A stretch of DNA of 64,000 nucleotides, taken from a virus. The stretch is from positions 1 to 64,000 of the IMG/VR virus record IMGVR_UViG_3300032282_006300. One strand, given 5' to 3'. Below, one piece after another: positions 9,090 to 38,277 of this stretch. A program made the translations under genes and the position numbers. The stretch's first letter is position 1; every line of letters begins with the position of its first letter. Below the pieces are notes generated by a model. It saw only the letters and a list, made by a program, of their open reading frames with translations. It made no database searches and was not told the origin of the DNA.

Positions 9090-9212
9090 TTTTCTCCTTA
9101 GTTCTTCAAACTTTCGGAGTTGATTTAAGTGATTACACAGTACCCCGCCACGGTAACGATCCGTGTTCCTCAGATTAAAAGTCTGATGCATCACCTTAAT
9201 GCTTGCAGGGCG

Positions 9213-9286
9213 CGACCCTGATCGGACTCGAACCGACGACATCCACCGTGACAGGGTGGCACTCTAACCAACTGAGTTACAAGGCC
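9213..9286 (-). tRNA. tRNA-Asp (GTC)
   Basis: GGCCTTGTAACTCAGTTGGTTAGAGTGCCACCCTGTCACGGTGGATGTCGTCGGTTCGAGTCCGATCAGGGTCG folds as a cloverleaf with anticodon GTC and a TTCGA T-loop. No encoded CCA. Confidence 0.93.
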
Positions 9287-10359: not shown

Positions 10360-10384
10360 GTTTTTTATTCCTTCCGGGCAATAT

Positions 10385-22393: not shown

Positions 22394-25069
22394 CTAGGAA
22401 TGGGCCCCGCAAAAATGGCTACCTTCTTGGGCATCGTTTTCGCACCCTTCCCAGTAACTAGAGCCCATCGGCCCGCTCATGCCATCATTTGCTAGGCCTT
22501 CACACATGCCATCATATTTGCAACCTTCTCCGTCATTCCAACAATCATCCGCGTAGTGGTTTTCGTTGTCTACAAAACCTTCACATTCATGATCATCATC
22601 TTTTTGTGATTTAGCGCACTCGTCATATACACCAGTGTGGTCATGGTCGGTTTCGTGATCGCTCTTAGGGCATCCACAAAGGCAGGTGGCCCCTGGAGAC
22701 TCTTTGCTTGCCAATGCCTGACTTAGGGGTAGGTGTAGTTCACAAAGGGTCTGTCCGCCAACCACAGCGGTCTTAGCCACGTTGCCACAATAATCGCATT
22801 TAACGGCCTGAGCGGTCTTGTAGAAAGAGAACTCAGTCTTGCGGGAACCAGTACTTGACTTGGGTACAAATTTTTCAACGTGGTTGTCTTCAGTGTTGGC
22901 CCCGTTACCTCCACCATGACCCTTTCCAAAACCCAGTCCTCGTGTTACGTTTTTCATCAATCCTCCTGCGCCACCTGCGGCTCCTGATCCGGCTCCGGCT
23001 GCTCCGGCTCCGGCCCCTGCTACTTCAGCACCGGCTGCTCCTGCGCCTGCTACTTCAGCCCCTGCTGCTCCGGCTGCTCCTGCACCTTCAAGCAATGCGG
23101 CTCCTTCAAGCAACACTGGCAAGAAAGCGGTTTTATTTGAAGCGGTGCTTCCGCCAAGAAGATTATTGGCAGTGTTCTTAGCGTAAGTGCTGTCGGCCTC
23201 TAGGTGGGCTTTATGCCAATCAGATTGAGAACGGCGAAGTTGGTCTTTAATAATTTCGAAAGCAACTGCTCGTTCCATTGATTTAGGAGCAAATCGATAA
23301 ACAGCAAAAGCCTTGGACTTTTCATGGTCTTCTTGGGCGACTTTCAACCTAATGTCGGCGTTACGTTTTTTGCGGTCACGAATTTCTTCATGGCTTAGAC
23401 CCGAATTGTTAAGTTCTTCAAAAGCATCTTCAATGCTTGGCGCAGGACGAGTGTTCTTAGGCAATTTAAAACTGCGTCCACGTTCAGGAGAAGGACCGGT
23501 TTGAGGAGCGGGGGCTTGAGAAGGTTGTGGTTTTTCGTTAGGAGATTGGAAAACAATCGGGTTAACCGCACCAGTTACCTTGTTCCAAGGTTGCTTGGGA
23601 TTTTTGACGTGAGAACTAGAGCGCTTGCACTTGCATTTGCTAACCATGCAACCGCCGGAAACAGGTGCTCCACTTTCCTTATCTTTGCTACGGAACTCAA
23701 CGTCGTGACTGTTGGCTGAGTGTCCACAAGTAGAACAATTGTCTGCGCTGGTTTCCCTATTCCAATCGTCGTCGTCGTCGTCGTCGTCGGAATCGCTTTC
23801 GTTATACTCATCGCCAAAATCAAAATCGTCATCGTCATCTAGGTTAGACTCGCTACCACAAGGACATTGGCAATCTCCACCAACACAGTTTTGGTGATTG
23901 CCTTCAAAACATTCTTGACAAATGTCAGCCTTAGCCAACTTACTCAAATCATCCCAGACTTGCTCAGACAAGGACGCTGTGGCTTGTTTTTCCATTCCCG
24001 AATCTTTGCAACGACGGCAAATGTCTTGACCTGCCAAGTTCGCAAGGAAGTCGTCCCCGCCACAGAGTTTGCAAGCCCAACCATCTTTTGCCAATTCAAA
24101 ATCAACAGCAAACTTCTTAAGGGCGGTCACACTCAAATGCGCTAATGCGCCAGAGGTCTTAGCGGTAGTGCTCTTGCCGTCGCCTGAACACACTTCGGGG
24201 TGACTGTACCAATCCTGTGGTGCATCATCTAGGTCAAACCAACGCTGACACTTAGGACAAGTCACACCATTGCGACCAGCGTTCTTGTGAACAGCATGGG
24301 AGTGAATGTTGCCCTCCGTCTTAGCATCGGGCCATTCGCCTTCCATTGCTTCGTGTTGTTCATCGTGCTCTGCTTGCAAATGTTCATGGTCCCAGTGGTC
24401 TACGCTAAATCCCACAGGTGGATGTAATTGAACAATGTGTTGCAAAAGTTCAGTGCGGTCTTGAGTGTTTACGGGATTCTTTTCTGCATGTTCTTTCATT
24501 TGAGAATCCCTAAATGCATCTTCTTCTCGTTGTTTAACGAATTCCCTCATAATCTCAAAACGACCTTTATCGCAGATGAGCCCTGTGTGTGTTTTTCCAT
24601 CTTCGGTTGGAATTGTAATTGGAACCGTTTCACCTTCGCAATCGGAAGGATAAAGGTGAGAAATACAACGTCCGTCAAGGTTAGCAATCTTGCTACCTTG
24701 TGACGACTTCAGGGCTTCTTCGTAGGCATCAAAGTGGCGGTCGTAGTAGGAGTCAGGGTAGGAATTGTGACGCTTAGCGTGAGCCATTTCATCATCGTTG
24801 GGCTTAGGCTTTAGCGAGTTGAACAGTTTGACATCAAAACCTTCAGCCAATTCTGCATCGCCCTGAGAAGCAATCTTGTTCAACTCATTCCAAACCTGTT
24901 CGGAAAGGGACGAGGACTTGTCAAGGGGGAGTTCTTCTTGCTCACCGAAACCGTTCTTTACTTCTCTTGTTCCACCATCGCAAGGGCAGTCGCAACGACC
25001 TTCGCCACCATTGGAAGGAACATCACAGTTGTGGTGATTACCAATCTTGCAATGACGACAAGAATCCAT
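22394..25069 (-). CDS. Modular Cys/His-rich polyprotein (putative internal head cargo)
   Basis: Many CxxC/H modules separated by KxA motifs (LNKIA, LKKFA, SNKTA, FYKTA), duplicated SLSEQVW, Gly/Ala repeat. Confidence 0.7.
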   Translation of the reverse strand: MDSCRHCKIGNHHNCDVPSNGGEGRCDCPCDGGTREVKNGFGEQEELPLDKSSSLSEQVWNELNKIASQGDAELAEGFDVKLFNSLKPKPNDDEMAHAKRHNSYPDSYYDRHFDAYEEALKSSQGSKIANLDGRCISHLYPSDCEGETVPITIPTEDGKTHTGLICDKGRFEIMREFVKQREEDAFRDSQMKEHAEKNPVNTQDRTELLQHIVQLHPPVGFSVDHWDHEHLQAEHDEQHEAMEGEWPDAKTEGNIHSHAVHKNAGRNGVTCPKCQRWFDLDDAPQDWYSHPEVCSGDGKSTTAKTSGALAHLSVTALKKFAVDFELAKDGWACKLCGGDDFLANLAGQDICRRCKDSGMEKQATASLSEQVWDDLSKLAKADICQECFEGNHQNCVGGDCQCPCGSESNLDDDDDFDFGDEYNESDSDDDDDDDDWNRETSADNCSTCGHSANSHDVEFRSKDKESGAPVSGGCMVSKCKCKRSSSHVKNPKQPWNKVTGAVNPIVFQSPNEKPQPSQAPAPQTGPSPERGRSFKLPKNTRPAPSIEDAFEELNNSGLSHEEIRDRKKRNADIRLKVAQEDHEKSKAFAVYRFAPKSMERAVAFEIIKDQLRRSQSDWHKAHLEADSTYAKNTANNLLGGSTASNKTAFLPVLLEGAALLEGAGAAGAAGAEVAGAGAAGAEVAGAGAGAAGAGSGAAGGAGGLMKNVTRGLGFGKGHGGGNGANTEDNHVEKFVPKSSTGSRKTEFSFYKTAQAVKCDYCGNVAKTAVVGGQTLCELHLPLSQALASKESPGATCLCGCPKSDHETDHDHTGVYDECAKSQKDDDHECEGFVDNENHYADDCWNDGEGCKYDGMCEGLANDGMSGPMGSSYWEGCENDAQEGSHFCGAHS

Positions 25070-25107
25070 GACTTAAACCTTTTCGTAGAAGAAGCAACTC
25101 CTACGGA

Positions 25108-25353
25108 TTACTCCGCTTCTTTGGTCACTTCAACAGTATTGGACGTTTCAATCCATACTCTTGCGCCACACGAAAGCGGGTCTTGTGCTTGATAAACAAC
25201 TCTGGCGGCCTCCAGACCGTCCTGCCCATAGATGATGGCAGTGTGAGCGTACCTGTTCTCCTTGTAAGTCTTTACCGTCAGCACAGGCTCGTTAGTGTTG
25301 TTCTTGGCATTGGCTTTAATCTTGTGCTGGTTTACATGAATGATGGTTTTCAT
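25108..25353 (-). CDS. Conserved phage hypothetical protein
   Basis: MKTIIHVNQH...VLTVK...PLSCGARVWIET, a family I recognise as widespread in phages, function unknown. Confidence 0.75.
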   Translation of the reverse strand: MKTIIHVNQHKIKANAKNNTNEPVLTVKTYKENRYAHTAIIYGQDGLEAARVVYQAQDPLSCGARVWIETSNTVEVTKEAE

Positions 25354-25482
25354 TTGACAAACACTTCGTTGGAAGCAATCTCACCCAATGTCACATCGGG
25401 GTGTTGTTCTAGGTATGCGTCAATGAAGTCTAGGTATTCTCCAAACTCTTGCTTGCTTCCCCTGAAGGACAAGACCAATGTC

Positions 25483-25677
25483 TTACTCACCTAGCAACTC
25501 CTTAATGCTTCTGTCGTTATCTGCGTGGCAAGACTGACACATTATTTTGCCTTTAATCTTCTCGCTGTTAGCCCAAAGTGCTTCATTGTCTTCGGTCAAG
25601 TAGATGTGAAAGTCGCCATAGTCAGCGAACTTGCGACCGCACACCAAACACTTTCCTACTTGTGAAAGTCTTGCCAT
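25483..25677 (-). CDS. Small zinc-finger protein
   Basis: CxxC...CxxC with AGGAG RBS. Confidence 0.6.
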   Translation of the reverse strand: MARLSQVGKCLVCGRKFADYGDFHIYLTEDNEALWANSEKIKGKIMCQSCHADNDRSIKELLGE

Positions 25678-25728
25678 AACAACTCCTATCGTTGGTTGCT
25701 TCCAACCTTACACCTTGCTGTCAAGCCT

Positions 25729-25923
25729 TTAGTCAGGCTCGTAAGGTTCAGAGTTGTTCACGACCTCGTGGAGTTCGCAGAACTTGTCTGAGGTTTCCGT
25801 GTCAATGTCGTCCTCGCAGAACTCAACATCGGGCACTTCTGTCCAATCAGGGTGAGCAACGGAGTAGTGATACATCACTGCCCAATTACACTTGCCCTTG
25901 ATTGGATTTACATCTTCACCCAT
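25729..25923 (-). CDS. Hypothetical protein
   Basis: MGEDVNP start with GGAGG RBS. Confidence 0.5.
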   Translation of the reverse strand: MGEDVNPIKGKCNWAVMYHYSVAHPDWTEVPDVEFCEDDIDTETSDKFCELHEVVNNSEPYEPD

Positions 25924-26016
25924 TGCGCTTTTCCTCCAGCAGTTTGGTGATACAAGGCACGCAGTAGTCAAAGCCGTTGGTGGCTTTGCTCTGGCAACCT
26001 TTGGTCTGGCAACGCT

Positions 26017-26328
26017 TCACGGTTTGCTCACTTGCTTCTGTTGCTTCCTTACCTGAGATAGCCAAGTCGGAACTGCGTCCTTCCAGACGGCTCTGAGGTC
26101 GTCGTCGTTGTTGATGAGGTCTGCTACCCACTCGCGCGCGAGCACCACCTCCAGCAGTCGCTCCGCTTCCTCAAGTGATGTCTGCTCGTCTATCTCCAAC
26201 TGACAGACCGAGCAGAAGGCTTTGGCTTCATTGCCGGTGGAGTTGGGACAAGCAATCCAAGTCAATGAGCCATCATCTGCGTGTTCCCCGAAGGCAAAGC
26301 CTGAGCAGGGATAGTGTGTATTGTTCAT
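26017..26328 (-). CDS. Hypothetical protein
   Basis: 103-aa ORF coupled (ATGA) to the upstream gene. Confidence 0.6.
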   Translation of the reverse strand: MNNTHYPCSGFAFGEHADDGSLTWIACPNSTGNEAKAFCSVCQLEIDEQTSLEEAERLLEVVLAREWVADLINNDDDLRAVWKDAVPTWLSQVRKQQKQVSKP

Positions 26329-26786
26329 GCGCTCACCTTAGCACCTAGAGCCTCTGCTGGGTACACCATCTGCCCAGCCTCAATGTCCTCCCTGATGTGG
26401 ACTTCACTCCACTCAGGCTCAACGGTCAAGAAGCCAGAGCCGGAGAAGGGGAAGCAGGTAAGCACCAGACCGTCTACAAGCCACTCACAGCCATCATCGC
26501 CCCACTCCCATAGTCCTTTGACCAAAGGGAACTGCGCGGTCGTGTCAAACTGTCTGGCGGTCGTGTCAATGACAATCTCCTCGGCTTCCACCCAAACTGC
26601 CCAATGCTCACGACCTTGATACTCAACGCCGGTCATTCGTATCAGGCTTGCGTCAATGCCTCGGTCTTGGAGGAACTGCGCCAAGCCCTGAGAGGCAATG
26701 ACACAATGTCCCCAAGCCTTGTGAGGTACTGACAAGTCCTGCTGGCTTTCGCACCACTGCTGGACTAGCCCTAGCGTGTGGTTCAT
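26325..26786 (-). CDS. Putative transglutaminase/papain-like (Cys-His-Asp) protein
   Basis: GHCVIAS...EHWAVWV...VIDTTARQF spacing of Cys, His and Asp. Confidence 0.55.
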   Translation of the reverse strand: MNHTLGLVQQWCESQQDLSVPHKAWGHCVIASQGLAQFLQDRGIDASLIRMTGVEYQGREHWAVWVEAEEIVIDTTARQFDTTAQFPLVKGLWEWGDDGCEWLVDGLVLTCFPFSGSGFLTVEPEWSEVHIREDIEAGQMVYPAEALGAKVSA

Positions 26787-26876
26787 CTTGCTCCTTCCGT
26801 TGTTGTTGTGCCCCACCTTAGCGACTAACGCCGGAGAGTCAAGCACCCTCACCGGCGTGTCGCCAGATTGTTTGAG

Positions 26877-27161
26877 TCAGCAATACTCGCAGATTTCGCA
26901 GTGCTCCACGGCGCAACGCACTATTGGCTGGCGGAGCAACTCCAGCAGGTAGCCGAGGAACTCAGGTCGGGTGATGTCCCATGCTTCTTCTTCAATGTGT
27001 CCGTAGTGCAATGGATTGCTCTCGTCCTCCATGAGCACGAAGCCTGCGGAGCAAGACCAATCCGCTCCGTAAGTGTTCACATCTCCGCGCTCGGTGTAGA
27101 CCTCAATCTCAATGCCGACTTGCTCAGCCAGCGTGAGCACTTGCTTGAGTGTTGCCTTCAT
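26877..27161 (-). CDS. Hypothetical early protein
   Basis: Own GACAC promoter cassette and RBS. Confidence 0.65.
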   Translation of the reverse strand: MKATLKQVLTLAEQVGIEIEVYTERGDVNTYGADWSCSAGFVLMEDESNPLHYGHIEEEAWDITRPEFLGYLLELLRQPIVRCAVEHCEICEYC

Positions 27162-27248
27162 GTCTTGCCCCCTTCGTTGTCGTTGGTACTAACTTACACG
27201 CAACGCCGGAGGAGTCAAGCATTTCCACCGGCGTGTCGCAAGATTGTG

Positions 27249-27521
27249 TCAGCGCGTTGCGTTGATGGGGAACATCTCATCAAAGATTTCCCACAGTCGG
27301 GCTTCCACAAGACCGGCTTGGTCAAAGGTGTCCGATACGATAAAGGACTCGTTTGGCTTGGTCGTCCAAATCTGCCCATCGTCAAGGACAAGACGGAAGC
27401 CTGTGCCGTCTGGTGTGACCCTTTGGACAACTCGGCTCATTACCCAAGCACCTGTGCGGGGATTGCCGTGGAGGGTGATGATGTCCTGCGTCTTGATTTC
27501 GTTAGCCGGTGTCTGGTTCAT
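27249..27521 (-). CDS. Hypothetical early protein
   Basis: MNQTPA start, own promoter cassette. Confidence 0.65.
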   Translation of the reverse strand: MNQTPANEIKTQDIITLHGNPRTGAWVMSRVVQRVTPDGTGFRLVLDDGQIWTTKPNESFIVSDTFDQAGLVEARLWEIFDEMFPINATR

Positions 27522-27610
27522 TGTGTTGCTCCCTTTCGTTGTCGTTAGTACTAACATACACGCCGGTGGTCACTTTCGCGGTATTGACCACCGGCGTGTC
27601 GCAAGTTATT

Positions 27611-27982
27611 TCAGCCGTAGATTTCCTCACCAAAGATTGCCAACTGAAGCACCGTGGTGGCAACGCAAACATCCCACGACCAGAAGTCGGTGGAGATGGC
27701 ATTGCCACAGCAGGAGTCGCGCAGAGAGCGCGTCAGGGCAATCTGGAAGCCCCTCTCAATGTCAGCAATACCCAAGATGATTTCGCTTGGCTTGCCATCG
27801 TAGAAGTCGTCCTGCTTGTAATAGGTGAACTTGATTTCACCAATGGTTTCCCAATCGGCTTCGCCGAGGTACTCGGCTGAAACGCAGAAGGACTTCATCA
27901 CAGGGTCGCAATCCCAGCCTGAGCCGAAAGTGGCTTCCCATAGAGCCTTGCTGTCCACCTCTACTGCGATTGTCTGGTTCAT
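27611..27982 (-). CDS. Hypothetical early protein
   Basis: MNQTIA start, ends VLQLAIFGEEIYG, own promoter cassette. Confidence 0.7.
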   Translation of the reverse strand: MNQTIAVEVDSKALWEATFGSGWDCDPVMKSFCVSAEYLGEADWETIGEIKFTYYKQDDFYDGKPSEIILGIADIERGFQIALTRSLRDSCCGNAISTDFWSWDVCVATTVLQLAIFGEEIYG

Positions 27983-28067
27983 TGTCTTGCTCCTCTCGTT
28001 GTTGTCGTTGGTACTAACATACACGAAACGCCGGTGGAAACAAGCATTTCCACCGGCGTGTCGCGGA

Positions 28068-28364
28068 TTATTTCACGCAGTCGGGACAGCCCAACTCGCA
28101 AGGCTCAACTCGTGAGCAAAGGTCTACGACACTCTCCCAGATGTCGCCCCAAAGTTCACCGTCCGTCCTGCTGTAATAGTAATCACGGTAGTGGCTGTCA
28201 CCATAGAAGGTGTAGCCGGTCGGAGGGTCAAGGCTGACATGACCACCGGAGATAACGAGGGTGCAACCTGCTCGCTTCGCGGAGGCGATTGCTTGCGCCT
28301 TCGTTGCCTTGCGGGCGGGCTTGACGGCAAAGAGTTGGTTCAGTCGTTGTTCTAGTTCTAACAT
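28068..28364 (-). CDS. Hypothetical early protein
   Basis: MLELEQ start with AAGGAG RBS, own promoter cassette. Confidence 0.65.
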   Translation of the reverse strand: MLELEQRLNQLFAVKPARKATKAQAIASAKRAGCTLVISGGHVSLDPPTGYTFYGDSHYRDYYYSRTDGELWGDIWESVVDLCSRVEPCELGCPDCVK

Positions 28365-28519
28365 GGTCTTGCTCCTTTCGGTTGTCGTTGGTACTAACAT
28401 ACACGAGTTTGCCCGAAACCTCGGTATTTCCACCGGCGTGTCGCAAACTATTTATTTCACCAAAGACCCCTGCCAGACGGGGGATGCTGGCAGGGGTCGG
28501 TCTGGTGTCAGGTCAGGCT

Positions 28520-28891
28520 CTAACCCTCCCTGCTCGTGTCGTTCACATCGTGGCTGTGAAACTCGCCCTCGCTCTGGATTTCAGAAGCCAGCGCGTCCTC
28601 ATCATCAAGGCAGTAGTCGTTGGACTCCACCTCGTACTCAGCCTCGCTCCAATCCAGCCAACGCTCAAGGTTGTCACCGTCACCCTCGCTATCAACGAGG
28701 GTGGTGGCTTCCTGCTCATCAGTAGCCAAGACCAGCAAGGAGAAGGGCACTGTGGCTGTGACCTCCACCGTGAGCGTAATGCCAAACTCGGCAAACTCAA
28801 GTTGAGCGCGGTACTCAGCAGTGCCGGTCACGCGGAACTTGTGGAGTTCTTGCGTGAAAGCAATCTCGTCATTGCTGTCAAAGTAGTTCAT
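28520..28891 (-). CDS. Highly acidic hypothetical early protein
   Basis: 123 aa, very D/E-rich C-terminal half, own promoter cassette. Confidence 0.65.
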   Translation of the reverse strand: MNYFDSNDEIAFTQELHKFRVTGTAEYRAQLEFAEFGITLTVEVTATVPFSLLVLATDEQEATTLVDSEGDGDNLERWLDWSEAEYEVESNDYCLDDEDALASEIQSEGEFHSHDVNDTSREG

Positions 28892-29443
28892 TGTCGTCCC
28901 CTTCTGTCGGTGTAAGCGGTCTTGCTTACAAGGAATACATTACACACCTTTGCCCGAAACCTCGGCATTTACATCGGCGTGTCGCAAGATTTATTTCAGG
29001 GGAGGTAAGAATACCCCTCCCTCCCTACCCTATTTATGGTATCGGCAATCTCGCGCGAAGTCACGCACATCTACCGGCGTGTCGTGAAAAAGTTTATGGA
29101 TTTATCGGCGTGTCGCTACATAACCTGTGCTCAACTCCCCAGATTGCTCTGTATCGCACGAACGCAGGGGGGCTGGTGTGATTGGATAGGGGCAGGGCTA
29201 AGGCTCTCACAGGGGCACACAGGGCTTCTGGTGGGGGTATGCCCCTTGTCAAGCATTGACTCCGGCGTGTCGTGAACTTTCGCCTGAAACGACCAAACCC
29301 CCCTCACGACAATGGGGGGGTCTGGGAGTCGCTGGGGAGGAAAGGAATACTCCTATGCGACTGCCACGCGCTGACAAGGCGCGTGGGGGTGAGCCTAGCC
29401 GGTGAGTCACGGGGGATGGACTCACCGGCTAGGGGCGTGGGGG

Positions 29444-29818
29444 CTACATAGGCTTCACCACGATGTAGTCGGTGGCGGTAGCCAGCATTTCGGCAATCGC
29501 AGGGTACTCAGCCTTCAGGCGAGTGGTGTCAATGCCGGTGCGAGTCCGAGAGCAAGCCATAACCTGAACATAGCCTCCGACTGAACCAGCCTCGTGACCA
29601 TCAAGAAGGGTCAGGATTTGAGCGCGAACCGCCTTTTCCTGAGCCTCAAACAACTTGCTCGCGGTGCGAGCCTCGTTGAGAGCGTTCACCAACTCCAACA
29701 GGTTGGTGTTGTCAAGAGCGATAACATCATCACTCACAGCGGTCGTCTGCTTCACAGCAGGAGCAATACCGACAAGTCGCGCGATTGCGGACTTGGTGAT
29801 TTCGGTCAAAGTAGCCAT
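29444..29818 (-). CDS. Hypothetical early protein (resembles C-terminal region of YqaJ-type phage proteins)
   Basis: Coiled coil followed by IDTTRLKAEYP, strong RBS, own promoter. Confidence 0.6.
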   Translation of the reverse strand: MATLTEITKSAIARLVGIAPAVKQTTAVSDDVIALDNTNLLELVNALNEARTASKLFEAQEKAVRAQILTLLDGHEAGSVGGYVQVMACSRTRTGIDTTRLKAEYPAIAEMLATATDYIVVKPM

Positions 29819-29918
29819 TGTCGTTCCTTTCCTTGTCGTTGTAAGCGGTCTTGCTTACAGGGACTAACTTACCGGACACACCGGAGGAGTCAAGCATTTC
29901 CTCCGGCGTGTCGCGGAT

Positions 29919-30185
29919 TTATTTCGTGTTCAGCGCGTCAAACTGTGCGTGCCACTCAGGGCTTGTCGCCTTGCCACACGAGATAGCAACTTCCAGCACC
30001 GCAATCGCGGTGTCAATAGACATCACCACTTCTTGTGGTGCGTCTGGAGCAGACCACTCGTATAAGTGCCTGTCCTCTCGCGCGATGTGCCAAGACTCGT
30101 ACCGAGCCTGAGCAAGTTCGCCCAGAGCCGAGTCAAGCAGGTTCAGCACGCGAAGCGTGGTTTCCCTTTGCCTTTGGACTGTCAA
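29919..30185 (-). CDS. Hypothetical early protein
   Basis: TTG start with AAAGGA RBS, own promoter. Confidence 0.55.
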   Translation of the reverse strand: MTVQRQRETTLRVLNLLDSALGELAQARYESWHIAREDRHLYEWSAPDAPQEVVMSIDTAIAVLEVAISCGKATSPEWHAQFDALNTK

Positions 30186-30719
30186 TGTCCTTTCCTTCCT
30201 GTTGAGTTGTTGGTAATAACCTACACGAAACCTCCGACAATGCTGGGATTTCGCTCGGCGTGTCGCAAACTTTATGAGATTTATTTATTTATTGGAGTCA
30301 CCGGCGTGTCGCTACACGACCTGTGAGTAAATCCTCCCTAACGGACTTTCAGGCAGGGGGTGGGGTGATTGCCCCTAAACAGGGGGTAAATGGCTTAGAA
30401 CGGCGCACAGGGCTTCTCCGGCGATTTGGCTAAAGTCAAGCATTTGGCTCGGCGTGTCGGGAACTTTCGTGACAATAGCAACCGCACGACTTGACCTGCC
30501 CTTCGCGCTCGTATGACTCACGACACGCCGAGTGCTGATGTGTCAAGCACCAGCCGAAACTTGTGGTACGGTCGGAGGTGGACTTTGGCTTCGGCTTCGG
30601 CTTCGGCTTTGCCCTAGTCATTGGCTTGCCCCCCTGAGCAGGGGCAGAGGTCGCTGGGCGAGTTCGGGAGTCAGCCCCCTGCCGGTGACATAACGGACAT
30701 TTCGGGCATAGCCCGATTT

Positions 30720-30943
30720 GAGTCCGAACTGAAAGTCCGGCGGCGAACTTGCTGGCTGACCCTGAGAGTCCACACAAGGTGTCCCAGCCTGTGATTGTGA
30801 CAAAGACCGGCGACAGTCCGAAGCCCCCTGGAATAGTCCGAACTCAGTCCGGTCATAGTCCCCTAATAGGGTGGTACGCATTAGTCCGAAGTCAGTCCGA
30901 GCATAGTCCCCTATGCTCAGTCCGACCTCAGTCCGGTAGTTCG
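30720..30943. repeat. Iteron-like array of (T/C)AGTCCG units, often 11 bp apart
   Basis: About 9 AGTCCG plus AGTCCC/AGTTCG variants in 220 bp. Confidence 0.85.
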
Positions 30944-30946
30944 GCA

Positions 30947-31417
30947 TTACCAACTCGCCCGATACTGAAACTCCCAGCCTTGAGGAGTGTCCTTCAGCAC
31001 ACGCTCTAGTTGCTCAATGGAGTCGTCAATGTCTGACCAATAGGACTCGTCAATCTCGGTTGAGCCGAAGAAGAAGCCAGCGCAAGGAGGCAACAGTTCC
31101 TCAGCGACCTCCTTGCCTCCAGCCTTGACATTGAGGCAGATGGTCAGCAGTTCGCTCAGTTGCTCACGACCGACATACATCTCCTGACATTCGTCAATGC
31201 CTCGCCCACAGTTGTCTACGAACCAGCGATGGATTTGATTTGCCTTGCGCCAATAGCCAACGGACAGGTCAATCTTTGCTGAAGGCACGAAGCCCCCTAC
31301 AAAGTCTTGACCTTTGACGGCCTCCAAGACCGCGCTGAAGGTGTCCTGATTGGCTTGGGACTGATAGATAGACTCGCTGACATACTTAGTCGCGGTCAGG
31401 TATTGGTCTAGACCCAT
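30947..31417 (-). CDS. Conserved phage hypothetical protein
   Basis: MGLDQYL...YWRKANQIHRWFV...GFFFGST...YRASW family signature. Confidence 0.8.
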   Translation of the reverse strand: MGLDQYLTATKYVSESIYQSQANQDTFSAVLEAVKGQDFVGGFVPSAKIDLSVGYWRKANQIHRWFVDNCGRGIDECQEMYVGREQLSELLTICLNVKAGGKEVAEELLPPCAGFFFGSTEIDESYWSDIDDSIEQLERVLKDTPQGWEFQYRASW

Positions 31418-31418
31418 C

Positions 31419-31691
31419 TCAATCACCCTCCTCATCAAGCCACGGTTCTAGGTGGTGTCCATCAACGATTGCCCACGCTGGCGCGCTCATCTCACCGCGA
31501 TACAGAATACCTTCGGGGAGGTCAATGTCTGCCTCGCTGTTGCCCTCGTTCACAGCCTCAATGGCCAGCACGCAAGGCTCAATCATTGTGGCGGGCACAG
31601 GTGGGTAGTGATTGTTGGTGAGGTGGATAGATAGTGCTTGACGCAAGCCAAACATACTCGTGGCTAGGTCTTGTGCGAAGTTGCTTCCCAT
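31419..31691 (-). CDS. Conserved actinophage hypothetical protein
   Basis: HLTNNHYPPVP...IVDGHHLEPWL. Confidence 0.7.
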   Translation of the reverse strand: MGSNFAQDLATSMFGLRQALSIHLTNNHYPPVPATMIEPCVLAIEAVNEGNSEADIDLPEGILYRGEMSAPAWAIVDGHHLEPWLDEEGD

Positions 31692-31775
31692 TGTCGTTCC
31701 TTCCTTGTTGTTGGTAGTTCCATTGTGGCACACACCGGAGGTCATTTGGGGGATTGACCTCCGGTGTGTCGGGAC

Positions 31776-32195
31776 TTATTCCGCAACAGCCAGCAGGATA
31801 AGTCGTTTCACATCACTGCCATAACCGCGCTCCAACATCTGAGCAAACAGTTGCGCGAGCCGGTTGTCCTCATTGTCGCCCTGACTCATCTCAAAGAAGT
31901 GCTGAGATACTTCGGGCAAGCCCCAGCAATGAGCGAGGATACTCGCCACAATCGCAGGGTGGTCGCGCTCACCATCAGGTGCGATGGTTGCGTACTCGTA
32001 GATGAAAGTTCGCAGTTCATACGCACCATCATCACTGCTCAGGGCAAGCCCCAGAACATTGTCGCGCACATACAGGTTGCTGAACGCGCTGGCCAGCATG
32101 GCAAACACTTCAGGCGTGTAGGTGCGTTCATTGTTGTCAATGGCAACAGCGAAGTCCACGACTGCCTGAACCTCTGAGTCGCTGTGGCTAATCAC
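31776..32195 (-). CDS. DUF4192-like helical protein
   Basis: VRDNVL...IVASILA...NRLAQL, similar in pattern to 21867-22325. Confidence 0.45.
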   Translation of the reverse strand: MISHSDSEVQAVVDFAVAIDNNERTYTPEVFAMLASAFSNLYVRDNVLGLALSSDDGAYELRTFIYEYATIAPDGERDHPAIVASILAHCWGLPEVSQHFFEMSQGDNEDNRLAQLFAQMLERGYGSDVKRLILLAVAE

Positions 32196-32362
32196 ATTGA
32201 CTCCTTAGCAAGTTGGATAGCGCGAACCATACCGCTTGCCCAGCCATCGTTGTATTGGATTTCCTCGTCCTCCAACTCGCCTTCCTCAGCCTCAGCCTTG
32301 TCTAGCGCGGTCGTCTGGTCGTGTTCTGCCTGAAGGACTTTGATGAGTTCCTCAATGGTCAT
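32192..32362 (-). CDS. Small acidic hypothetical protein (56 aa, below ORF-track cutoff)
   Basis: MTIEELIKVLQAEHDQTTALDKAEAEEGELEDEE..., follows a promoter cassette with GGAAGGAAG RBS. Confidence 0.6.
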   Translation of the reverse strand: MTIEELIKVLQAEHDQTTALDKAEAEEGELEDEEIQYNDGWASGMVRAIQLAKESM

Positions 32363-32511
32363 TGTCTTGCTTCCTTCCTTGTTGTTGTTGTTGTTGTTGG
32401 TCTTACTATTTCACACACTCTGGTCATTTCGGTGTATTGACCTCGGCGTGTCGTGGACTTATTTCGGAAGGTGTTGCCCCTGCCCAATGGCGGTCAGGCA
32501 GGGGCAAGTAC

Positions 32512-33348
32512 CTATCCCTCCTCGTAGAAGTCAAACGAGTTCCAAGCCTCGTCCTCGTCCCAATCGTTGTCCCAAGCAGAGCCGTCAGACCCAAGCAAGG
32601 GCACATAGTCAGGGTTGGCAATCTCAGCCAACACTTCATAGCGACAGGTACGCAACTTCTGGAAGTCGCAGTCGCGCGGAACGGATACAACATCGCGAGG
32701 GTTGATTTTCACCTTGACCACGCGAGGTGCGAAGGTGGAGGCGTAGTCCCAAGTGCCAGCGTGGAGTCCGGTAGAACAGCCCTCAAAGGCGTTTGCGTTC
32801 ACGCGATTGCGAGGCATTTCCACGATTGACCCAACAGAGTTCGGGACATTACCGTAGACGGTCTGACCATCTACGATTGCTTCCCCAGAGTGAACCGAGG
32901 TGAGGTCGTCCCTCAGACCCTTGTAGGCGATAAAGTCACCGTCCTCAGTAATGGTGAAGTTCCGGTCGTTGAGCCAAGTGTAAAGTTGCTCACGACTGTT
33001 GCCATTACGGTTCTGGAGTACCTTCTCGTAGAAGTTCACGAGAGGCACGAAATCGTAGATACCCTGCTTCTGAAAGCGCGAGATTTGCGCCGACAAAGAG
33101 TTGTCCACGAGTTCACCATCAACATACACACGACCATCGCTGATTGAGATACGGTCGCTGACCTTCTCAAAGGCTTGTCGTGCTTGCTCGGCTAGGTCAA
33201 ACAAGCCAAACACTTGAGGGTCGTCCTTGATAACTCCCTCAATAATCTGCGCGAACGCAGGGTGATTGTTGGTGGCTGTGTAGACCTTGCCACCTTGTAG
33301 CACCGTAATGGCTGAGCCATTACCTGTGCTGATGAGTTCGTAAAGCAT
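32512..33348 (-). CDS. rIIB: rIIB-like protein
   Basis: NPS-like NRNGNSREQLY...ITEDGDFIAYK...VEMPR...CSTGLHAG...KINPRDVVSVP.D....R.CRYEV. Confidence 0.9.
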   Translation of the reverse strand: MLYELISTGNGSAITVLQGGKVYTATNNHPAFAQIIEGVIKDDPQVFGLFDLAEQARQAFEKVSDRISISDGRVYVDGELVDNSLSAQISRFQKQGIYDFVPLVNFYEKVLQNRNGNSREQLYTWLNDRNFTITEDGDFIAYKGLRDDLTSVHSGEAIVDGQTVYGNVPNSVGSIVEMPRNRVNANAFEGCSTGLHAGTWDYASTFAPRVVKVKINPRDVVSVPRDCDFQKLRTCRYEVLAEIANPDYVPLLGSDGSAWDNDWDEDEAWNSFDFYEEG

Positions 33349-33482
33349 TTCGTTTCCTTCCTTGTAGTTGTTAGTTCTAACTTACCATCTGGGACTGACA
33401 AACCGTGTATTGACGACCGGCGTGTCGTGAGAAGTTTCGGCAGGGCAGGTCAGGCAGGGAAGCCCTGACCTGCCCCTGACCG

Positions 33483-35519
33483 TCACTCGCTGGACTGCTG
33501 ACGCAGGGCATAGGAAGCGTTGAGGTAGATAACAAACTCAGCCCTGACGAGTTCACTATCGGTCACACGACCCAGCCAGATTTCGTTGAGCAGGGGATAA
33601 CTGTGAAGGCTGGTCTTGTAGTCGCTGACCAAAGACTCACCGATAGAGAACGAAAGCGTTCGTGCCAACTTGCGGAACTTGCTCACGACCTCACCGACCT
33701 TCTCATAGCAATCTTTCAGGTCGCGCAGTTCGTCAATGAACTGCTGGTCGTCTACCAATCCCTCTAGCGCGTCAGCGAGTTTGGCTGGCTGACCGAACGA
33801 GTTGTTATTGGAGTTGTAGAGAACAACCTCGCGCGATGTGAACGCTGTCAATGCTTCAGCATAGTCGCGCTTGATTGCTTGTTGGACTGTCAGAGCCAGA
33901 GGGTTCTCTCGCAAGAACTTGTCCTGACGGTTCTTGGCAACTTCCACGACCGCGTAGTTGTCCTCCACAAAATGCTCCACAATACGATTGCGCGAATAGC
34001 CACGGTACTCGTCATTGCTCAGTTCCGTTGGCGAGAAGTAGAGAACCTGCTTGCCAGCAAAGTCAATGCTGTCGGCTGGCATAAGCCCTCCGTTGTTGGT
34101 GACAAGTTCCCAATCCTTAGTGCGTGTTGGGGAGTTCGCGGTGGTCGTTCCAACAGATTGCTTGTGAACTTTGATTGCCTTGATTGTTGAGTAATCAACG
34201 GCAAGAACATTGACCCACTCGCCGACAAAGTTGGTGTCTGCGAATAAGTATTCCGTTGGAGCAGTTTCCAAAGCGAGCGTGTCCACATAAGCGTTCACTC
34301 TCTCAATGGTCGTGGCAGAAGGGTACGACTCACTGCTGTATCCGGTGACAAGAAGTACCTTGCCCAAGTCGCTCGCAATAATAGAACTTTGACGAGAGTT
34401 CTTACGACTACCGTAAGAAGGACTGAGTTGGTGGAGCAGGTAAGAATAACGGAACTGATTGGGCACAGTTTCGCCCCTGAACTCAAACCGCTTGTTGCTG
34501 TCCTCAATGTTGCGCGCAATCGCTCGCCATTGGGTCGCTTCCTCAAAGGCTTCTGCCTTGTTGTTAGCCCTTCCGACATCGGCATAGGCTTTATTGCGTG
34601 CGTTCTTGCGTGCGATGTTCACGAGTTCGGCAAGTCGCTTCTCGGTTCGGTCTGTCAAGTGTAGTTCCTCACGGCTTGGCACGAAGTTGAGTTCGCCCAT
34701 TGGAACTGTGAATACGACAAGGCAATCAAACCAACGGTTGAGTTCGTCTGCGATGTTGCGTGGAGCAGGGTAAGGCACTCCACCCATTACGAAGGTGTGC
34801 GCGCTAATCCTGTCGTCTACCGATTGCGCGCGCCAAGAACTCCAAGCAGGCAGGTTGGTAGCAACAATGGACACATCGTCAGTTCCGACTTCCTTGCCCT
34901 CCACCTTGACATTAGGTTCACCGTCAATCAAGACAGAACCGGACTCCCAGACAGAGAACAGTATCTTAGCCTTGCTTGCGAACTTGTTGTCCGGCTTGGC
35001 TGGGACAGTAATCTTGACTCCGTTGCGTTCGGTCGTGGAGGCGGTGTCCATCACCGACATAGTGCCAGCACCGTCAGTCTTGACTGAGATAAGTACCTCA
35101 GACTTCACACCGTCCTTCACAGCCGTCATAATGAACTGTGAGGCATAGGTCAGGGCAGACTTTGAGCCAAGACCGAGCATACCTGTTTGCTCATTGGACT
35201 CGCGCTTAGTGCTTGCTCCATAGCGTGAGTAGATAGCAGTAATGTCGTCAAGCGACAGCCCTAAGCCAAAGTCCTGAATAGTCAGGAACGGAGAGAGCGT
35301 GTTGGGGAGATTGACCTCAATGGGGGCAGGGTTGCCAGAGGCGATGTGAGAGTCGCGCGCGTTGCTGGAATACTCACGCAAGACTGCCATTTCGGGGTCG
35401 GAGTAGAGGTTGGTCAGAACGCTCATAATGTGAGCGAGCGAGTTCTGGTCAATGCTCATCTCAATGGACTCGCCCTCAAAGGTTGAGGACTTACGAATAC
35501 CTGTCTTTGCTGGTATCAC
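33483..35519 (-). CDS. rIIA: rIIA-like protein (GHKL/HATPase N-terminus)
   Basis: LYSDP.MAVLREYSSNARDSH...IQDFGLGLS...YGASTKR.SN...GMLGLGSKS...SREEL, adjacent to rIIB. Confidence 0.9.
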   Translation of the reverse strand: MIPAKTGIRKSSTFEGESIEMSIDQNSLAHIMSVLTNLYSDPEMAVLREYSSNARDSHIASGNPAPIEVNLPNTLSPFLTIQDFGLGLSLDDITAIYSRYGASTKRESNEQTGMLGLGSKSALTYASQFIMTAVKDGVKSEVLISVKTDGAGTMSVMDTASTTERNGVKITVPAKPDNKFASKAKILFSVWESGSVLIDGEPNVKVEGKEVGTDDVSIVATNLPAWSSWRAQSVDDRISAHTFVMGGVPYPAPRNIADELNRWFDCLVVFTVPMGELNFVPSREELHLTDRTEKRLAELVNIARKNARNKAYADVGRANNKAEAFEEATQWRAIARNIEDSNKRFEFRGETVPNQFRYSYLLHQLSPSYGSRKNSRQSSIIASDLGKVLLVTGYSSESYPSATTIERVNAYVDTLALETAPTEYLFADTNFVGEWVNVLAVDYSTIKAIKVHKQSVGTTTANSPTRTKDWELVTNNGGLMPADSIDFAGKQVLYFSPTELSNDEYRGYSRNRIVEHFVEDNYAVVEVAKNRQDKFLRENPLALTVQQAIKRDYAEALTAFTSREVVLYNSNNNSFGQPAKLADALEGLVDDQQFIDELRDLKDCYEKVGEVVSKFRKLARTLSFSIGESLVSDYKTSLHSYPLLNEIWLGRVTDSELVRAEFVIYLNASYALRQQSSE

Positions 35520-35630
35520 TTTGGAACTTCCCTTCGGTTGTTGTTGGTGACGGTCATCACCTTGTGCCCTAATCATTACACGACAAACGCCGATACTCGT
35601 GGATTGAGTACCGGCGTGTCGCGGATTATT

Positions 35631-35993
35631 TCAGAACGAGTAGGTATTGACCTTCTCAACCGATTTCATACGAGCCTTCAGCACCTTCTCGTACTCCGAA
35701 CGCTCGTGATACACATAGCCACAGGAGTTGCCTGTGCCAACGAAGTAGAAGATTGTGGTGAAGCAGTTGTAAGGGTCACAGGCGTTGTCCATCTTCCACC
35801 TCAGACCCCCCATGTCGTCTACCCAAACATCGTCAATCGGGATACCGCAGGAGAAGTGATACACCTTCGCCAGATAGTCCTTCTTGACCCACCCTTTCGG
35901 GTTGAGCAGTCGCGCAGTCTTGGAGGCTTCCGTCAGGCTGGTGTTCTTTCCCCAGCGACCGTTTCCACCAATGACGACATAGAAATCAGACAT
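35631..35993 (-). CDS. Hypothetical early protein
   Basis: 120 aa with GGGAG RBS, first gene downstream of the non-coding hub. Confidence 0.6.
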   Translation of the reverse strand: MSDFYVVIGGNGRWGKNTSLTEASKTARLLNPKGWVKKDYLAKVYHFSCGIPIDDVWVDDMGGLRWKMDNACDPYNCFTTIFYFVGTGNSCGYVYHERSEYEKVLKARMKSVEKVNTYSF

Positions 35994-36246
35994 ACAATCA
36001 TCTCCCCTGTTGAGTTATGCCAGCACTTGCTGACAAGAACTAACTTAGCACCTCAGACCCCCGAAACCGTGTATTGACCGCTTCGGCGTGTCGCCGGAAT
36101 AGAGATTTCCAACTATTTCCAAACTCTCGGCGTGTCGCTACAAGGGCTGTATGTAAATGCTCTGTAATCGCCTGAAACGATGTGGTTGGTATGGTTGGGT
36201 GGATACGGGGGGTAAGTGGCTCAAATCGCCTCCTACGGCTTCTAAA

Positions 36247-36271
36247 GACCATTGTCCCACATTGTTCCACT
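36247..36271 (-). promoter_or_regulatory. Short MraZ-type GTGG decamer repeat
   Basis: GTGGAACAAT-GTGGGACAAT-GG on the minus strand, 10-bp period. Confidence 0.4.
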
Positions 36272-36456
36272 ATGTCCGATTTGCTCTGCTCTGTTGAGTT
36301 ATGGCTTTCGCTACCTCAAGCATAGCATCACTTGACCCAAAATCTTGGTATTGACTCTCGGCGTGTCGTGAAAAGATTTATTTATTTTCGGCGTGTCGGT
36401 ACTTGATTTCGCGCCTCAAAAGAGTAAAGTTGAGTTTGGTGCCCAAAAACATTTAT

Positions 36457-36472
36457 TCGTACAGGTGTTCTA
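36457..36472. promoter_or_regulatory. LexA (SOS)-box-like site
   Basis: TCGTAC-AGGT-GTTCTA versus the actinobacterial consensus TCGAAC-N4-GTTCGA (2 mismatches). Confidence 0.5.
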
Positions 36473-36654
36473 ATCCAACGACACTCTGTTGCCTCGGTTC
36501 CCTAACTCACCAGCCTAATGCCAAATGGGGCACTTGTCAAAGACCGACACGCGGTTTGGTAGGTGTTTATCATCACACTCAAATCGGCGTGTCTTGCCAA
36601 GATTTCAGGTATGGTTCGGCTATGGTGGTCGTGCCCACGAGCATAACCTACCTT

Positions 36655-36682
36655 ACTTGACATAATGTGTATTATCGGCGTG
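36655..36682 (-). other. dif-like XerC/XerD recombination site
   Basis: CACGCCGATAA-TACACA-TTATGTCAAGT, an 11-6-11 layout. The XerD arm TTATGTCAAGT and the GCCGATAA of the XerC arm match the actinobacterial dif as I recall it. Confidence 0.8.
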
Positions 36683-36824
36683 AGCCACTACGAGTAGGAG
36701 GTCTAGGCACAAATGCCCTTCAGAAGCCCTGTAAGGCTCGCTGAGGGACTTACCCTCCTTCTGTAGGCAATCACCCTAGCCCTTACCTGTTAGGCGCTCA
36801 TGAAGCCATACAGAGCCTCCAAAT

Positions 36825-36951
36825 CTATCCACAGACCTCACGCCTGTATCCACAGGTTATCCACAGGTCGCAAGTTATCCACAGGTTATCCACAAGGTTG
36901 TCCACATTGTGGATAAAATCTGTGGATAACTTGTCCACAGCCTGTGGATAG
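36825..36951. promoter_or_regulatory. Cluster of 10 DnaA boxes
   Basis: TTATCCACA at 36857, 36875, 36886. TGTGGATAA at 36908, 36921. TTGTCCACA at 36898, 36931. One-mismatch boxes at 36825, 36846, 36943. Confidence 0.9.
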
Positions 36952-37055
36952 TGCCTGTCCGTTATGTCCGATTTGCCAGACACGGGGGGTCTCAGCGCCA
37001 GCCAGACCCGCGGGGAGCCATACCATACCCCTACCCCCGCCGCGCGCGTGGACCA

Positions 37056-37276
37056 TAGTCCGGTCCAGTCCGGTCCGTGAGCATGAGCATGACCGGTGTC
37101 AGTGAGCATGACCGAGTCCGGTGTCAGGGCTATAGTCCGATTTCAGTCCGGCGGTTCCCAAAAATAGTCCGAACTTAGTCCGAAGATCAGTCCGAAGCAT
37201 TTTTAAATAGTCCGGACCCATACATGTAAAAAGTCCTCGGCACATCTAGTCCGAAAATAGTCCGGCCATAGTCCGA
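37056..37276. repeat. Second iteron-like (T/C)AGTCCG array
   Basis: About 12 AGTCCG units, many 11 bp apart, same orientation as 30720-30943. Confidence 0.85.
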
Positions 37277-37370
37277 CACAAGTACGCTCGCGTGACGCTC
37301 GCAACTTAATTCAACTTGTTCTCGCCGCCGACTCTTCTTGCACAGCGAACGTGTCCGTAGGCACAAAAAG

Positions 37371-37420
37371 ATGGTAGAAAGTGGTAGAAAGTGGTGCATG
37401 GTGGGGCTTTGTGGGACTTT
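37371..37420 (+). promoter_or_regulatory. MraZ-type binding array (5 x 10-bp GTGG repeats)
   Basis: ATGGTAGAAA GTGGTAGAAA GTGGTGCATG GTGGGGCTTT GTGGGACTTT. Confidence 0.65.
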
Positions 37421-37575
37421 GCTATTAGATATCTGTTAGTGAACTATTGTCCCTATTCGCACGCTTGATTGTAAACGGTACGGGTAATCTTCCAAACACT
37501 ATCGTCCACATGAACGCTACTATGATGTCCATGAGGATATGATCAGGGTCAGATATGTTTTCTAGGAATTGTTCT

Positions 37576-38235: not shown

Positions 38236-38277
38236 TATTGTTCTCCGTTATATTGAAAATACACAAGTAAAATTGCT

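Follow-up and report, generated by a model that had tools for sequence, protein, structure and literature searches.

Why should one stretch of a phage genome be without a single GATC over some 14 kb, when about 450 copies are found in the genome as a whole? This question was raised by the IMG/VR record IMGVR_UViG_3300032282_006300, a genome of 123,830 bp, of which positions 1 to 64,000 form the window analysed here. IMG/VR's own estimate rates the genome as a complete virus, and its gene content suggests a complete, uncultured, contractile-tailed phage of 124 kb. We found that the GATC gap encloses a gene block, with an rIIA-like and an rIIB-like gene, in which ten 4-bp palindromes are nearly gone, and that the purge ends sharply in a non-coding stretch at 36.8-37.3 kb, called the hub below. 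On balance, and with moderate confidence, we favour the reading that this core is an early gene block stripped of short restriction targets by selection as the DNA exposed earliest in infection, most likely through staged entry of the genome.

GATC is found at 22986 and then at 37185. The gap between them measures 14,199 bp (22990-37184 being free of the motif), compared with 1,628 bp for the second-longest GATC gap of the genome. Base composition predicts 54.8 copies in it, a trinucleotide Markov model 39.6 and the genome's own rate 58.7, and the Poisson probability of observing none is at most about 1e-17. The original prediction had placed the last GATC near 22986 and the next near 37185, with about 55 expected in between. 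The positions proved exact, the expected number agrees with that from base composition, and the observed/expected k-mer counts that it had proposed as a check bore out a depletion stronger than claimed. Its description of the surroundings was also correct. GATC is dense to the right of 37185, with five copies at 37541-37615, and AGCT, said to be rare or absent across the window, has a count of 0 there. The supposed shortage of TCGA, TTAA and AATT in 22990-37184 corresponds to 2 copies against 62 expected, 10 against 25 and 13 against 56, respectively, all of which fall left of 25.9 kb. The part described as richer in guanine and cytosine (GC) has a GC content of 0.52-0.56 in 26-36 kb, compared with 0.39-0.47 beside it.

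The motif counts define a core at 25901-37130 (54% GC; like the GATC gap, it is not a stranded feature), in which the ten purged palindromes total 6 copies against 346 expected. AATT, ACGT, AGCT, ATAT, GATC, TCGA and TTAA have no copy at all, TATA has 1, TGCA 2 and GGCC 3, and these ten are the most depleted among all 256 tetramers in the core. The remaining six 4-bp palindromes total 231 copies against 243 expected. CCGG, CGCG, GCGC, CTAG and GTAC are at expectation, and CATG is at about one-third of it, with some of its remaining copies in the hub repeats. No other 2-kb bin of the genome has this pattern; the motifs are normal there except for AGCT and TCGA, which are low genome-wide. The purged core makes up 9% of the genome; over the remaining 91%, these motifs are as frequent as chance predicts.

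Longer and degenerate words are affected as well. In the core, CCNGG was found once against 36 expected, GCNGC twice against 42, GGNCC three times against 31 and TTNAA once against 28, and counts for the narrower forms GCWGC (0 against 28), CCWGG (1 against 27.5), GGWCC (3 against 30) and TTSAA (1 against 28) are similarly low. Non-palindromic words are also purged, for example GTCTC (1 against 19), ACTGG (1 against 16) and GCATC (2 against 14). Many of the missing words are presumably restriction sites, for example those of AluI, MboI, HaeIII, TaqI, MseI, EcoRII, AvaII, Fnu4HI, BsmAI, BsrI and SfaNI; further purged motifs, some of them non-palindromic, are presumably also known Type II and IIS sites. 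Among hexamer palindromes, 55 of 64 are absent from the core, and 20 of the 28 copies present are CGCGCG or GCGCGC. The block has 12 copies of CGCGCG (13 in the genome) and 8 of GCGCGC (10 in the genome), jointly 20 of the genome's 23, a concentration that is probably a by-product of codon choices avoiding other palindromes. A separate, strand-asymmetric signal was seen on the plus strand of 25901-37130, where ATTC occurs 5 times against 44 expected and its complement GAAT 13 times against 29, and where T runs and A runs are also low. The palindrome purge does not account for this ATTC/GAAT signal.

A second tier of avoidance covers the entire genome and concerns few motifs. AGCT has 0 copies in all 123,830 bp against 320 expected under a Markov model, TCGA has 105 against 319, and CCATGG (0 against 19) and GCCGGC (0 against 19.5) are missing. 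AGCT, CCATGG, GCCGGC and, in part, TCGA may be the targets of enzymes that the phage cannot disarm.

Is the depletion a property of the DNA or of the proteins that it encodes? Synonymous codons were shuffled, 200 times per test, within each of 14 block genes and six control genes from outside the block. The block genes hold 5 sites of the purged set, compared with a mean of 216.6 and a minimum of 176 in the shuffles, and kept motifs in the same shuffles were at expectation. Five of the six control genes were depleted by no more than 30%, and the head gene not at all (35 sites against 32.2). Substitutions in two metagenome contigs that are 98.2% and 97.2% identical to the block gave the same answer. 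We scored them by a joint count, as single scoring over-counts created sites when neighbouring substitutions co-occur. The relative with 83 substitutions has 5 sites, compared with 15.6 when the same spectrum of substitutions is placed at random (P 0.0005). The relative with 155 substitutions has 5 compared with 28.8, a count as low as the observed one being reached in 0 of 2000 simulations. Kept motifs were at the null in both. Depletion in the block reflects selection on the DNA rather than on the protein, and this selection is still operating.

The shuffles, the relatives and a second lineage described below together bear out, as selection on DNA, the earlier claim that the block has been purged of restriction targets. 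Restriction avoidance is strongly supported as the reading of the purge, and the selecting agent would then be restriction itself. General aversion to hairpins or palindromes is excluded, because CCGG, CGCG, GCGC, CTAG and GTAC escape it, (CG)3-type hexamers accumulate in the block and non-palindromes are purged. A base-modification route was not found among the five families searched. PF00145, PF01555, PF02086, PF01702 and PF00303, which cover C5, N4/N6 and Dam-type methyltransferases, TGT and ThyA-like proteins, each had 0 matches in the genome.

The pattern recurs in a second lineage (loci L003-L006), in which rIIA is 43-45% and rIIB 72-74% identical to the proteins of this phage. Its purged set is the same plus CATG, its kept set is the same, and the purge covers at least 12 kb in L004, at a local GC of 47-50%. 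In this lineage the purge takes the form of a mosaic, in which rIIA, rIIB and several small genes are free of sites and a few genes scattered between them have 24-48 per kb. The homologue of one block gene of 137 amino acids (aa) has 0 sites in the present genome and 40 per kb in L004, where it lies past the continuous purged stretch, in the mosaic zone. This indicates that purging follows position and residence time, not gene family.

These relatives came from searches with the rIIA protein, which gave 805 homologues among 7,997 scored candidates. They comprise two near-identical clusters, a large group that shares 40-46% identity, and weaker relatives, whose contigs are in many cases 105-131 kb long; among phages, rIIA is closest to that of large Streptomyces phages, at about 32%. 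When metagenome contigs were scanned with an alignment, 80 loci were obtained. A scan of IMG/VR with rIIA alone found no relative, and one with the rIIA alignment found 73 loci, all with rIIA identity of 47% or less and none from either purged lineage. At the DNA level, 22-38 kb had no near-identical match among 50,697 phage records.

We then asked how widespread such a purge is among rIIA neighbourhoods. The survey covered 126 sequences of at least 6 kb, that is 124 loci (some contigs being represented twice), the first 50 kb of T5 and this genome; L001 and L003, which are shorter than 6 kb, fell outside it. A 3-kb window in which at least 8 of the 16 palindromes are absent despite an expectation of at least 4 was found solely in this genome (10 palindromes), L004 (9) and L002 (8). 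L005 and L137 reached 6, L006 reached 5, and the remaining 120 sequences had 4 or fewer. Phages with a more distant rIIA avoid one motif at most, for example AGCT or GATC alone. Three AT-rich phages, L137, L138 and L150, are without ACGT, CTAG, GTAC, CCGG and GGCC over at least 10 kb around rIIA, and low counts of those motifs return in the L137 and L138 loci over the initial 5-6 kb. These phages may have a regional purge of their own, directed at another set of motifs.

The runs examined, from freshwater, soil and sediment, contain sequence that matches the block and its left flank at 95-99% identity. Of the 22 runs listed, 20, from 12 studies, contain part of the stretch. The likely source run has it in a single 43-kb contig, and the other 19 contain 28-57% of the sampled words; in the three of these that were examined, parts of the stretch occur in pieces 95-99% alike.

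What does the purged block encode? The rIIA-like gene lies at 33483-35576 on the minus strand (697 aa in its longest frame, 678 aa in the calls of close relatives) and matches PHROG 612 with an E value of 3e-87. The rIIB-like gene, at 32512-33348 on the same strand (278 aa), matches PHROG 609 with an E value of 6e-60. Neither has any site of the purged set, compared with 65.5 and 27.0, respectively, in synonymous shuffles. The two genes stand side by side and belong to their families by sequence, and protection from abortive infection is the role that this would predict. Between them and the hub are three small open reading frames (ORFs) of 53, 76 and 120 aa (35631-36663, minus strand), the first downstream of the hub. 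They have no Pfam or PHROG family, and the Atlas matches of the 120-aa ORF are viral hypothetical proteins alone. On the other side, at 25983-32487 on the minus strand, about 15 small ORFs form a run; they are 42-175 aa long and for the most part acidic, with an isoelectric point of 4.1-5.3 in 10 of the 11 tested. A weak DUF4192 match at 31776-32195 is the single Pfam hit in this run; 30947-31438 matches phrog_7971 and 29444-29818 matches phrog_434/1956. In total the block contains rIIA, rIIB and about 20 small ORFs, almost none with a family match. Such a profile is typical of early host-takeover regions, and the block probably serves host takeover and anti-defence. The early-gene setting that had been proposed for it is upheld by rIIA, rIIB and the small genes directly downstream of the hub in a one-strand genome.

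The right border of the block lies in the hub, a non-coding stretch of about 0.9 kb composed of DnaA boxes, a GC-rich spacer and iterons. About ten TTATCCACA-like boxes, 7 forward and 3 reverse, are clustered at 36825-36951, inside the purged zone. The cluster contains 7 of the genome's 10 DnaA-box matches by a looser pattern and 7 of 9 by the stricter TT[AG]TCCACA. A repeat scan found twelve direct AGTCCG iterons (eight as TAGTCCG), many of them 10-12 bp apart, at 37057-37275 on the plus strand. The purge stops inside this iteron array, at 37131-37185. The density of the ten motifs is 0 per kb in 36131-37130, then 26 and then 51, and the first purged-set sites past the block are TATA at 37131, GATC at 37185 and TTAA at 37203. 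In L001, the 98% relative, the right border is at the same place. With DnaA boxes that face both ways, accompanied by phased iterons and an AT-rich stretch, the hub has the elements of an origin and may be a site of initiation; it would fit a replication origin equally well as an injection-stop border. Some 350 bp outside the block, at 37541-37618 and assigned to no strand, five GATC lie within 75 bp, four as TGATC and partly in two 12-nt tandem units. We take this cluster to resemble methylation-sensitive pac or origin elements.

The left edge, in contrast to the sharp right one, is graded over 4-5 kb, and the density of the ten motifs per kb runs 1, 6, 17, 24, 27 and 35 from 26.1 to 21.1 kb. 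In the margin where the purge fades (22990-25900, unstranded), GATC and ATAT are still at zero and TCGA has 2 copies. The absence of GATC and ATAT reaches about 23 kb, inside an 891-aa gene (22394-25069, minus strand; no PHROG family) that spans the left border originally proposed. This gene is mildly depleted, with 60 sites against 86.0 in shuffles (minimum 66).

The position of the block in the genome bears on how it might be exposed. The minus strand carries every large ORF of the 123.8-kb genome, a co-orientation like that in T7-type entry, by analogy with which a direction of entry might be read. Along transcription, the hub is followed by the purged block, the 891-aa protein, a 1,948-aa protein and the major head protein (9373-10443). 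Past the contig join come tail fibres, sheath and baseplate, and then replication genes (helicase, exonuclease, ribonucleotide reductase, primase, SSB, DNA polymerase and a UvsX-like recombinase). The large terminase (66.2-68.2 kb), the portal (47.7-49.8 kb) and small genes (45-37.5 kb) lead back to the hub. A sheath gene is present, and the genes for head and packaging are of actinophage type. Both the portal (41-44% identity) and the terminase (30-34%) are nearest to those of cluster C mycobacteriophages and Rhodococcus phage E3. The host would probably be a low-GC actinobacterium from freshwater or soil. The assembly closes into a circle. An 83-nt end overlap (1-83 = 123748-123830), which underlies the direct-terminal-repeat class of the record, sits within a collagen-like (Gly-X-Y) coding repeat with a period of 36 nt in a tail-fibre-type gene; the record ends are thus an assembly join and no physical end.

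We propose the following mechanism. The block DNA would have to be present in the cell, and transcribed, at a time when the phage has not yet made any counter-defence protein, and each target in it would be a lethal liability because of that exposure. Targets in the other 91% would be harmless, as that DNA would become exposed after the block products have disarmed the host. The delay would most likely come from staged genome entry, block first, with the hub at 36.8-37.3 kb marking the sharp border of the first-exposed segment. Because hundreds of targets, including the ~450 GATC, exclude escape by chance methylation, the remainder would have to be out of reach early and the enzymes disarmed later. 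Early exposure appears the most economical reason for the purge. It is favoured because the motifs are at chance in 91% of the genome and because of published experiments with T5, BF23 and Murciavirus. The purge, its selective origin, its conservation, the gene content and the make-up of the border are established here; a first-injected block is the best available reading of them, from which we infer staged entry and an end at one side or the other of the block.

The closest precedent is the first-step-transfer (FST) segment of T5 and BF23 (Demerecviridae). This pre-early segment of about 10 kb, mostly of unknown functions, is the part whose freedom from targets decides survival; restriction and CRISPR act solely via sites in it, and it is followed by the injection stop, a long non-coding border with many repeats and DnaA boxes. 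The block resembles it in that targets are missing from one contiguous segment and present elsewhere, in that some 10 DnaA boxes and 12 iterons occupy the non-coding hub at the sharp edge, whose role is read here by analogy, and in that neighbouring genes are transcribed toward the segment. Unlike T5, this phage has a sheath gene and actinophage-type head and packaging genes. T5 pre-early homologues (A1, A2, dmp) were not found among the block ORFs scanned, 17 by Pfam and 21 by PHROGs, so the likeness to T5 is one of analogy, not kinship. Murciavirus (Autographiviridae; Martinez-Cazorla et al., NAR 2025, PMC12455610) provides a second precedent. There, restriction acts solely through motifs in the first-injected region, and the authors describe restriction-modification systems as filters at the sub-genomic scale. 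Their case concerns one Type I motif in podophages of about 40 kb with known entry polarity, whereas ours concerns more than 20 short Type II-like motifs in 11 kb of a 124-kb phage with a tail sheath gene.

Other models share single features with the block. In the T7 model, entry is coupled to transcription and Ocr is the first gene. The genome resembles T7 in its one-strand genes, in an early block right after a non-coding leader and in a depletion that fades along transcription, and differs in that its gene order is not early, middle, late. Ocr-like matches were not found among the block proteins with Pfam and PHROGs. SPO1 (Herelleviridae) is like it in being a large myophage with a block of about 11-13 kb in which small early genes are numerous; the SPO1 host-takeover module lies in the 13-kb terminal redundancy. 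To compare these phages by region, we counted how many of the 16 tetramer palindromes fall under 0.2 of expectation. Ten do so in the block at 25901-37130, where the effect is regional, and 1 in the rest of this genome (AGCT, genome-wide). The T5 first-step-transfer segment has 0 of 16, hence nothing regional. The T7 early 7.6 kb has 1 (GATC, low genome-wide there) and is no more depleted than the rest of T7, and the SPO1 terminal repeat has 2 (CGCG and GGCC), a profile that matches the rest of SPO1. Genome-wide loss of short palindromic targets by selection in phages is described by Rusinov et al. 2018 (PMC6286503), and motif depletion in plasmid leading regions is cited in PMC12455610. AGCT, TCGA, CCATGG and GCCGGC are avoided here in that genome-wide manner; the main feature differs in being regional, with one sharp border and far more motifs. 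A regional purge of many motifs in a phage was not found in the literature searched, which held only single-motif cases; supplementary tables, possibly with per-region counts for T5-like phages, were outside that search.

Several observations weigh against our reading. Since T5, T7 and SPO1 are without a regional purge of tetramers, the textbook mechanism alone predicts no purge this broad. The sparing of CCGG, CGCG, GCGC, CTAG and GTAC has no explanation. Islands of sites are tolerated inside the purged zone of the second lineage, so freedom from sites is not all-or-none. The order from the hub, with early block, head, tail, replication and packaging, is no simple early-to-late order, and T7-type RNA polymerase (PF00940) had no match in the genome in a search that was positive in T7. 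No known anti-restriction family was found among the block proteins with Pfam, PHROGs and two Atlas look-ups. Momo, a phage in the cluster of the listed terminase matches, is described as circularly permuted, as is Finch, a Rhodococcus myophage outside the terminase matches. With random ends there would be no fixed first-injected DNA, as the Murciavirus authors themselves state (PMC12455610). Finally, the read data are assembled contigs of four public runs, and contigs cannot show molecule ends.

If entry is staged, where is the end? The position originally proposed for a physical end, 37.1-37.2 kb, competes with at least two others. By analogy with T7, the leading end could lie at about 37.15 kb, with entry along transcription. 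The co-oriented genes and the fading of depletion along transcription speak for this geometry, and the missing T7-type polymerase and the gene order speak against it. The hub could instead be a T5-like injection stop, that is the inner border, with the end near 25.9 kb. In its favour, the DnaA-box and repeat-rich non-coding border of T5-like phages follows the first-entering segment, the genes beyond the hub are small, variable and transcribed toward the border, and the first 50 kb of T5 has 3 consensus DnaA boxes, all in the first-entering segment. This weakens the case for an end at 37.1-37.2 kb, because a T5-like DnaA-box and repeat stretch marks the inner border and not the terminus, and the end would then be at the other side of the block. 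On the other hand, the second geometry leaves the graded left margin without explanation. The terminase relatives described as circularly permuted speak against both geometries; a pac-started headful series from the hub would reconcile them with edges that are sharp and then fading. We also considered, as a possible and rather doubtful scenario, that two-step DNA transfer arose independently of T5 in a sheath-bearing phage, with the 11-kb block going in ahead and being held at a DnaA-box/iteron stop, with the rest of the genome entering once the block products have disarmed the host, and with selection by many hosts scrubbing more than 20 motifs.

Permuted relatives suggest a different explanation, which we consider unlikely. 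The phage might package by the headful into a circularly permuted genome, no DNA would reliably be first, and the purge would reflect something other than entry order. Most of the incoming genome might be shielded by a co-injected DNA-coating protein or a compartment, with only the transcribed early operon exposed; or cuts elsewhere might be repaired by an early recombinase and exonuclease, with a cut in the early operon always fatal. In a milder form, pac-initiated headfuls would have ends clustered beside a pac in the hub, giving a sharp edge at pac and fading downstream. The kinship of terminase and portal with cluster C mycobacteriophages and E3, the descriptions of Momo and Finch (the latter also with nearly all genes on one strand), the encoded UvsX-like recombinase and exonuclease, the closing of the assembly into a circle and a depletion that stops abruptly at the hub and fades with distance from it are all consistent with this explanation. 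So are the phased direct iterons and the TGATC cluster in and beside the hub, which we take to resemble terminase-binding or pac-type repeat arrays. However, the ~450 GATC alone make repair outside the block implausible for 4-bp cutters, and we know of no such shielding system in phages of this kind. A terminase identity of 30-34% is too low to transfer the packaging mode. Pac sites are usually near terminase genes, and the hub is 29 kb from the terminase gene.

The purge might otherwise protect the block from the phage's own early nucleases, which would cut host DNA at short sites. This has been hypothesized for T5 protein A1 (Davison's proposal), and it would suit both the many block genes without known function and a breadth (at least 11 tetramers and several pentamers) that is large for any one host's enzymes. 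No nuclease family was found among the block proteins with Pfam and PHROGs, and one or few phage nucleases would not require the removal of more than 20 motifs, which makes this explanation very improbable. We give still less credence to a recently acquired foreign module from a donor phage purged genome-wide. The composition of the block would agree with it (GC 54% compared with 44% in the rest; GC at third codon positions 0.59-0.71 compared with 0.31-0.44 in most control genes), early regions of phages are mosaic and one margin gene has clearly been exchanged recently. However, the loss of AT-rich palindromes is expected to raise GC by itself, AGCT is at zero in the block and the rest alike, and the same regional pattern is found in the lineage with rIIA at 43-45% identity and a GC of 47-50%. 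New substitutions in the 97-98% relatives still avoid sites, one homologous gene is purged in the zone and unpurged past its continuous part, and with a transfer the same question would merely arise for the donor. A cause that is structural or involves no selection (mutation bias, hairpin or cruciform avoidance near an origin, an assembly or contamination artefact) can be dismissed as highly implausible. In its favour are the origin-like hub next to the block and the instability to which palindromes can be prone. It is already contradicted by the motif counts and the substitutions in relatives, with five 4-bp palindromes at expectation, CGCGCG (12) and GCGCGC (8) enriched and non-palindromes purged. 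A single methylation-linked decay is excluded because motifs without C or without A are equally affected, and an artefact is made unlikely by the recurrence of the stretch, which is present in one 43-kb contig of the likely source run and, in parts 95-99% alike, in the three other runs examined, out of the 20 listed runs from 12 studies that contain part of it.

The flanks of the block show further features. At 25108-25353 on the minus strand is an 81-aa gene (phrog_8676, PHROG E 1.6e-27) that carries sites. It is 76-83% identical to its counterpart in the second lineage, while rIIA is at 43-45%, it is unpurged in both lineages, and in the second lineage it sits in an unpurged island. Since its identity between lineages is far above that of rIIA, it has moved recently, and it looks like a small gene moving between phages. 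Extra partial contig matches from other runs fall on the same interval. A joint from 39000 to 25208 in one X2 contig was considered as a genome junction and rejected, being best read as a copy of this mobile 25.1-25.35 kb gene. The right flank (37600-41000; small genes, 36-41% GC) is highly variable among relatives that are 95-99% identical, and one contig skips 2,062 nt of it (37626 to 39689). Contig stops at 37331-37584 in three other runs were considered as genome ends and set aside; they were read as strain variation with the variable right flank.

Scans for regulatory elements gave 7 promoter-consensus sites compared with 8.1 in shuffles, the consensus not covering actinobacterial promoter types, and 12 terminator-like sites compared with 13.3, no more than chance. 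Rfam showed no family within 20-46 kb. Elsewhere, the giant ORF at 12837-18683 (1,948 aa) has an N-terminal match to phrog_2774 and a head-protease-like family, and another at 61711-66036 (1,441 aa) has an acetyltransferase-like domain in its window part. The sole tRNA genes of the genome, Lys-TTT and Asp-GTC, are adjacent at 9140-9286, just downstream of the major head gene.

The principle that restriction presses on part of a phage genome is known; the breadth of the regional purge described here is unseen in T5, T7 and SPO1. Experiments so far have shown sub-genomic restriction pressure for single motifs, in T5-like phages and Murciavirus. The block is a natural case in which nearly every short target is gone from 9% of the genome, with one base-sharp border, and its pattern has been kept by lineages as far apart as 45% protein identity. 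If the proposed reading is true, a simple k-mer scan would find the first-exposed DNA, and hence likely anti-defence genes, in uncultured phages, and the roughly 20 small block genes of unknown function would be prime candidates for new anti-restriction or host-takeover functions. The two tiers of avoidance, with few motifs genome-wide and many in the block only, would then report which host enzymes the phage cannot and can disarm. If two-step transfer is true, the first-entering DNA and the polarity of entry would be readable from sequence alone in uncultured phages. If the phage is instead circularly permuted like its relatives, the pattern would require a mechanism yet to be described.

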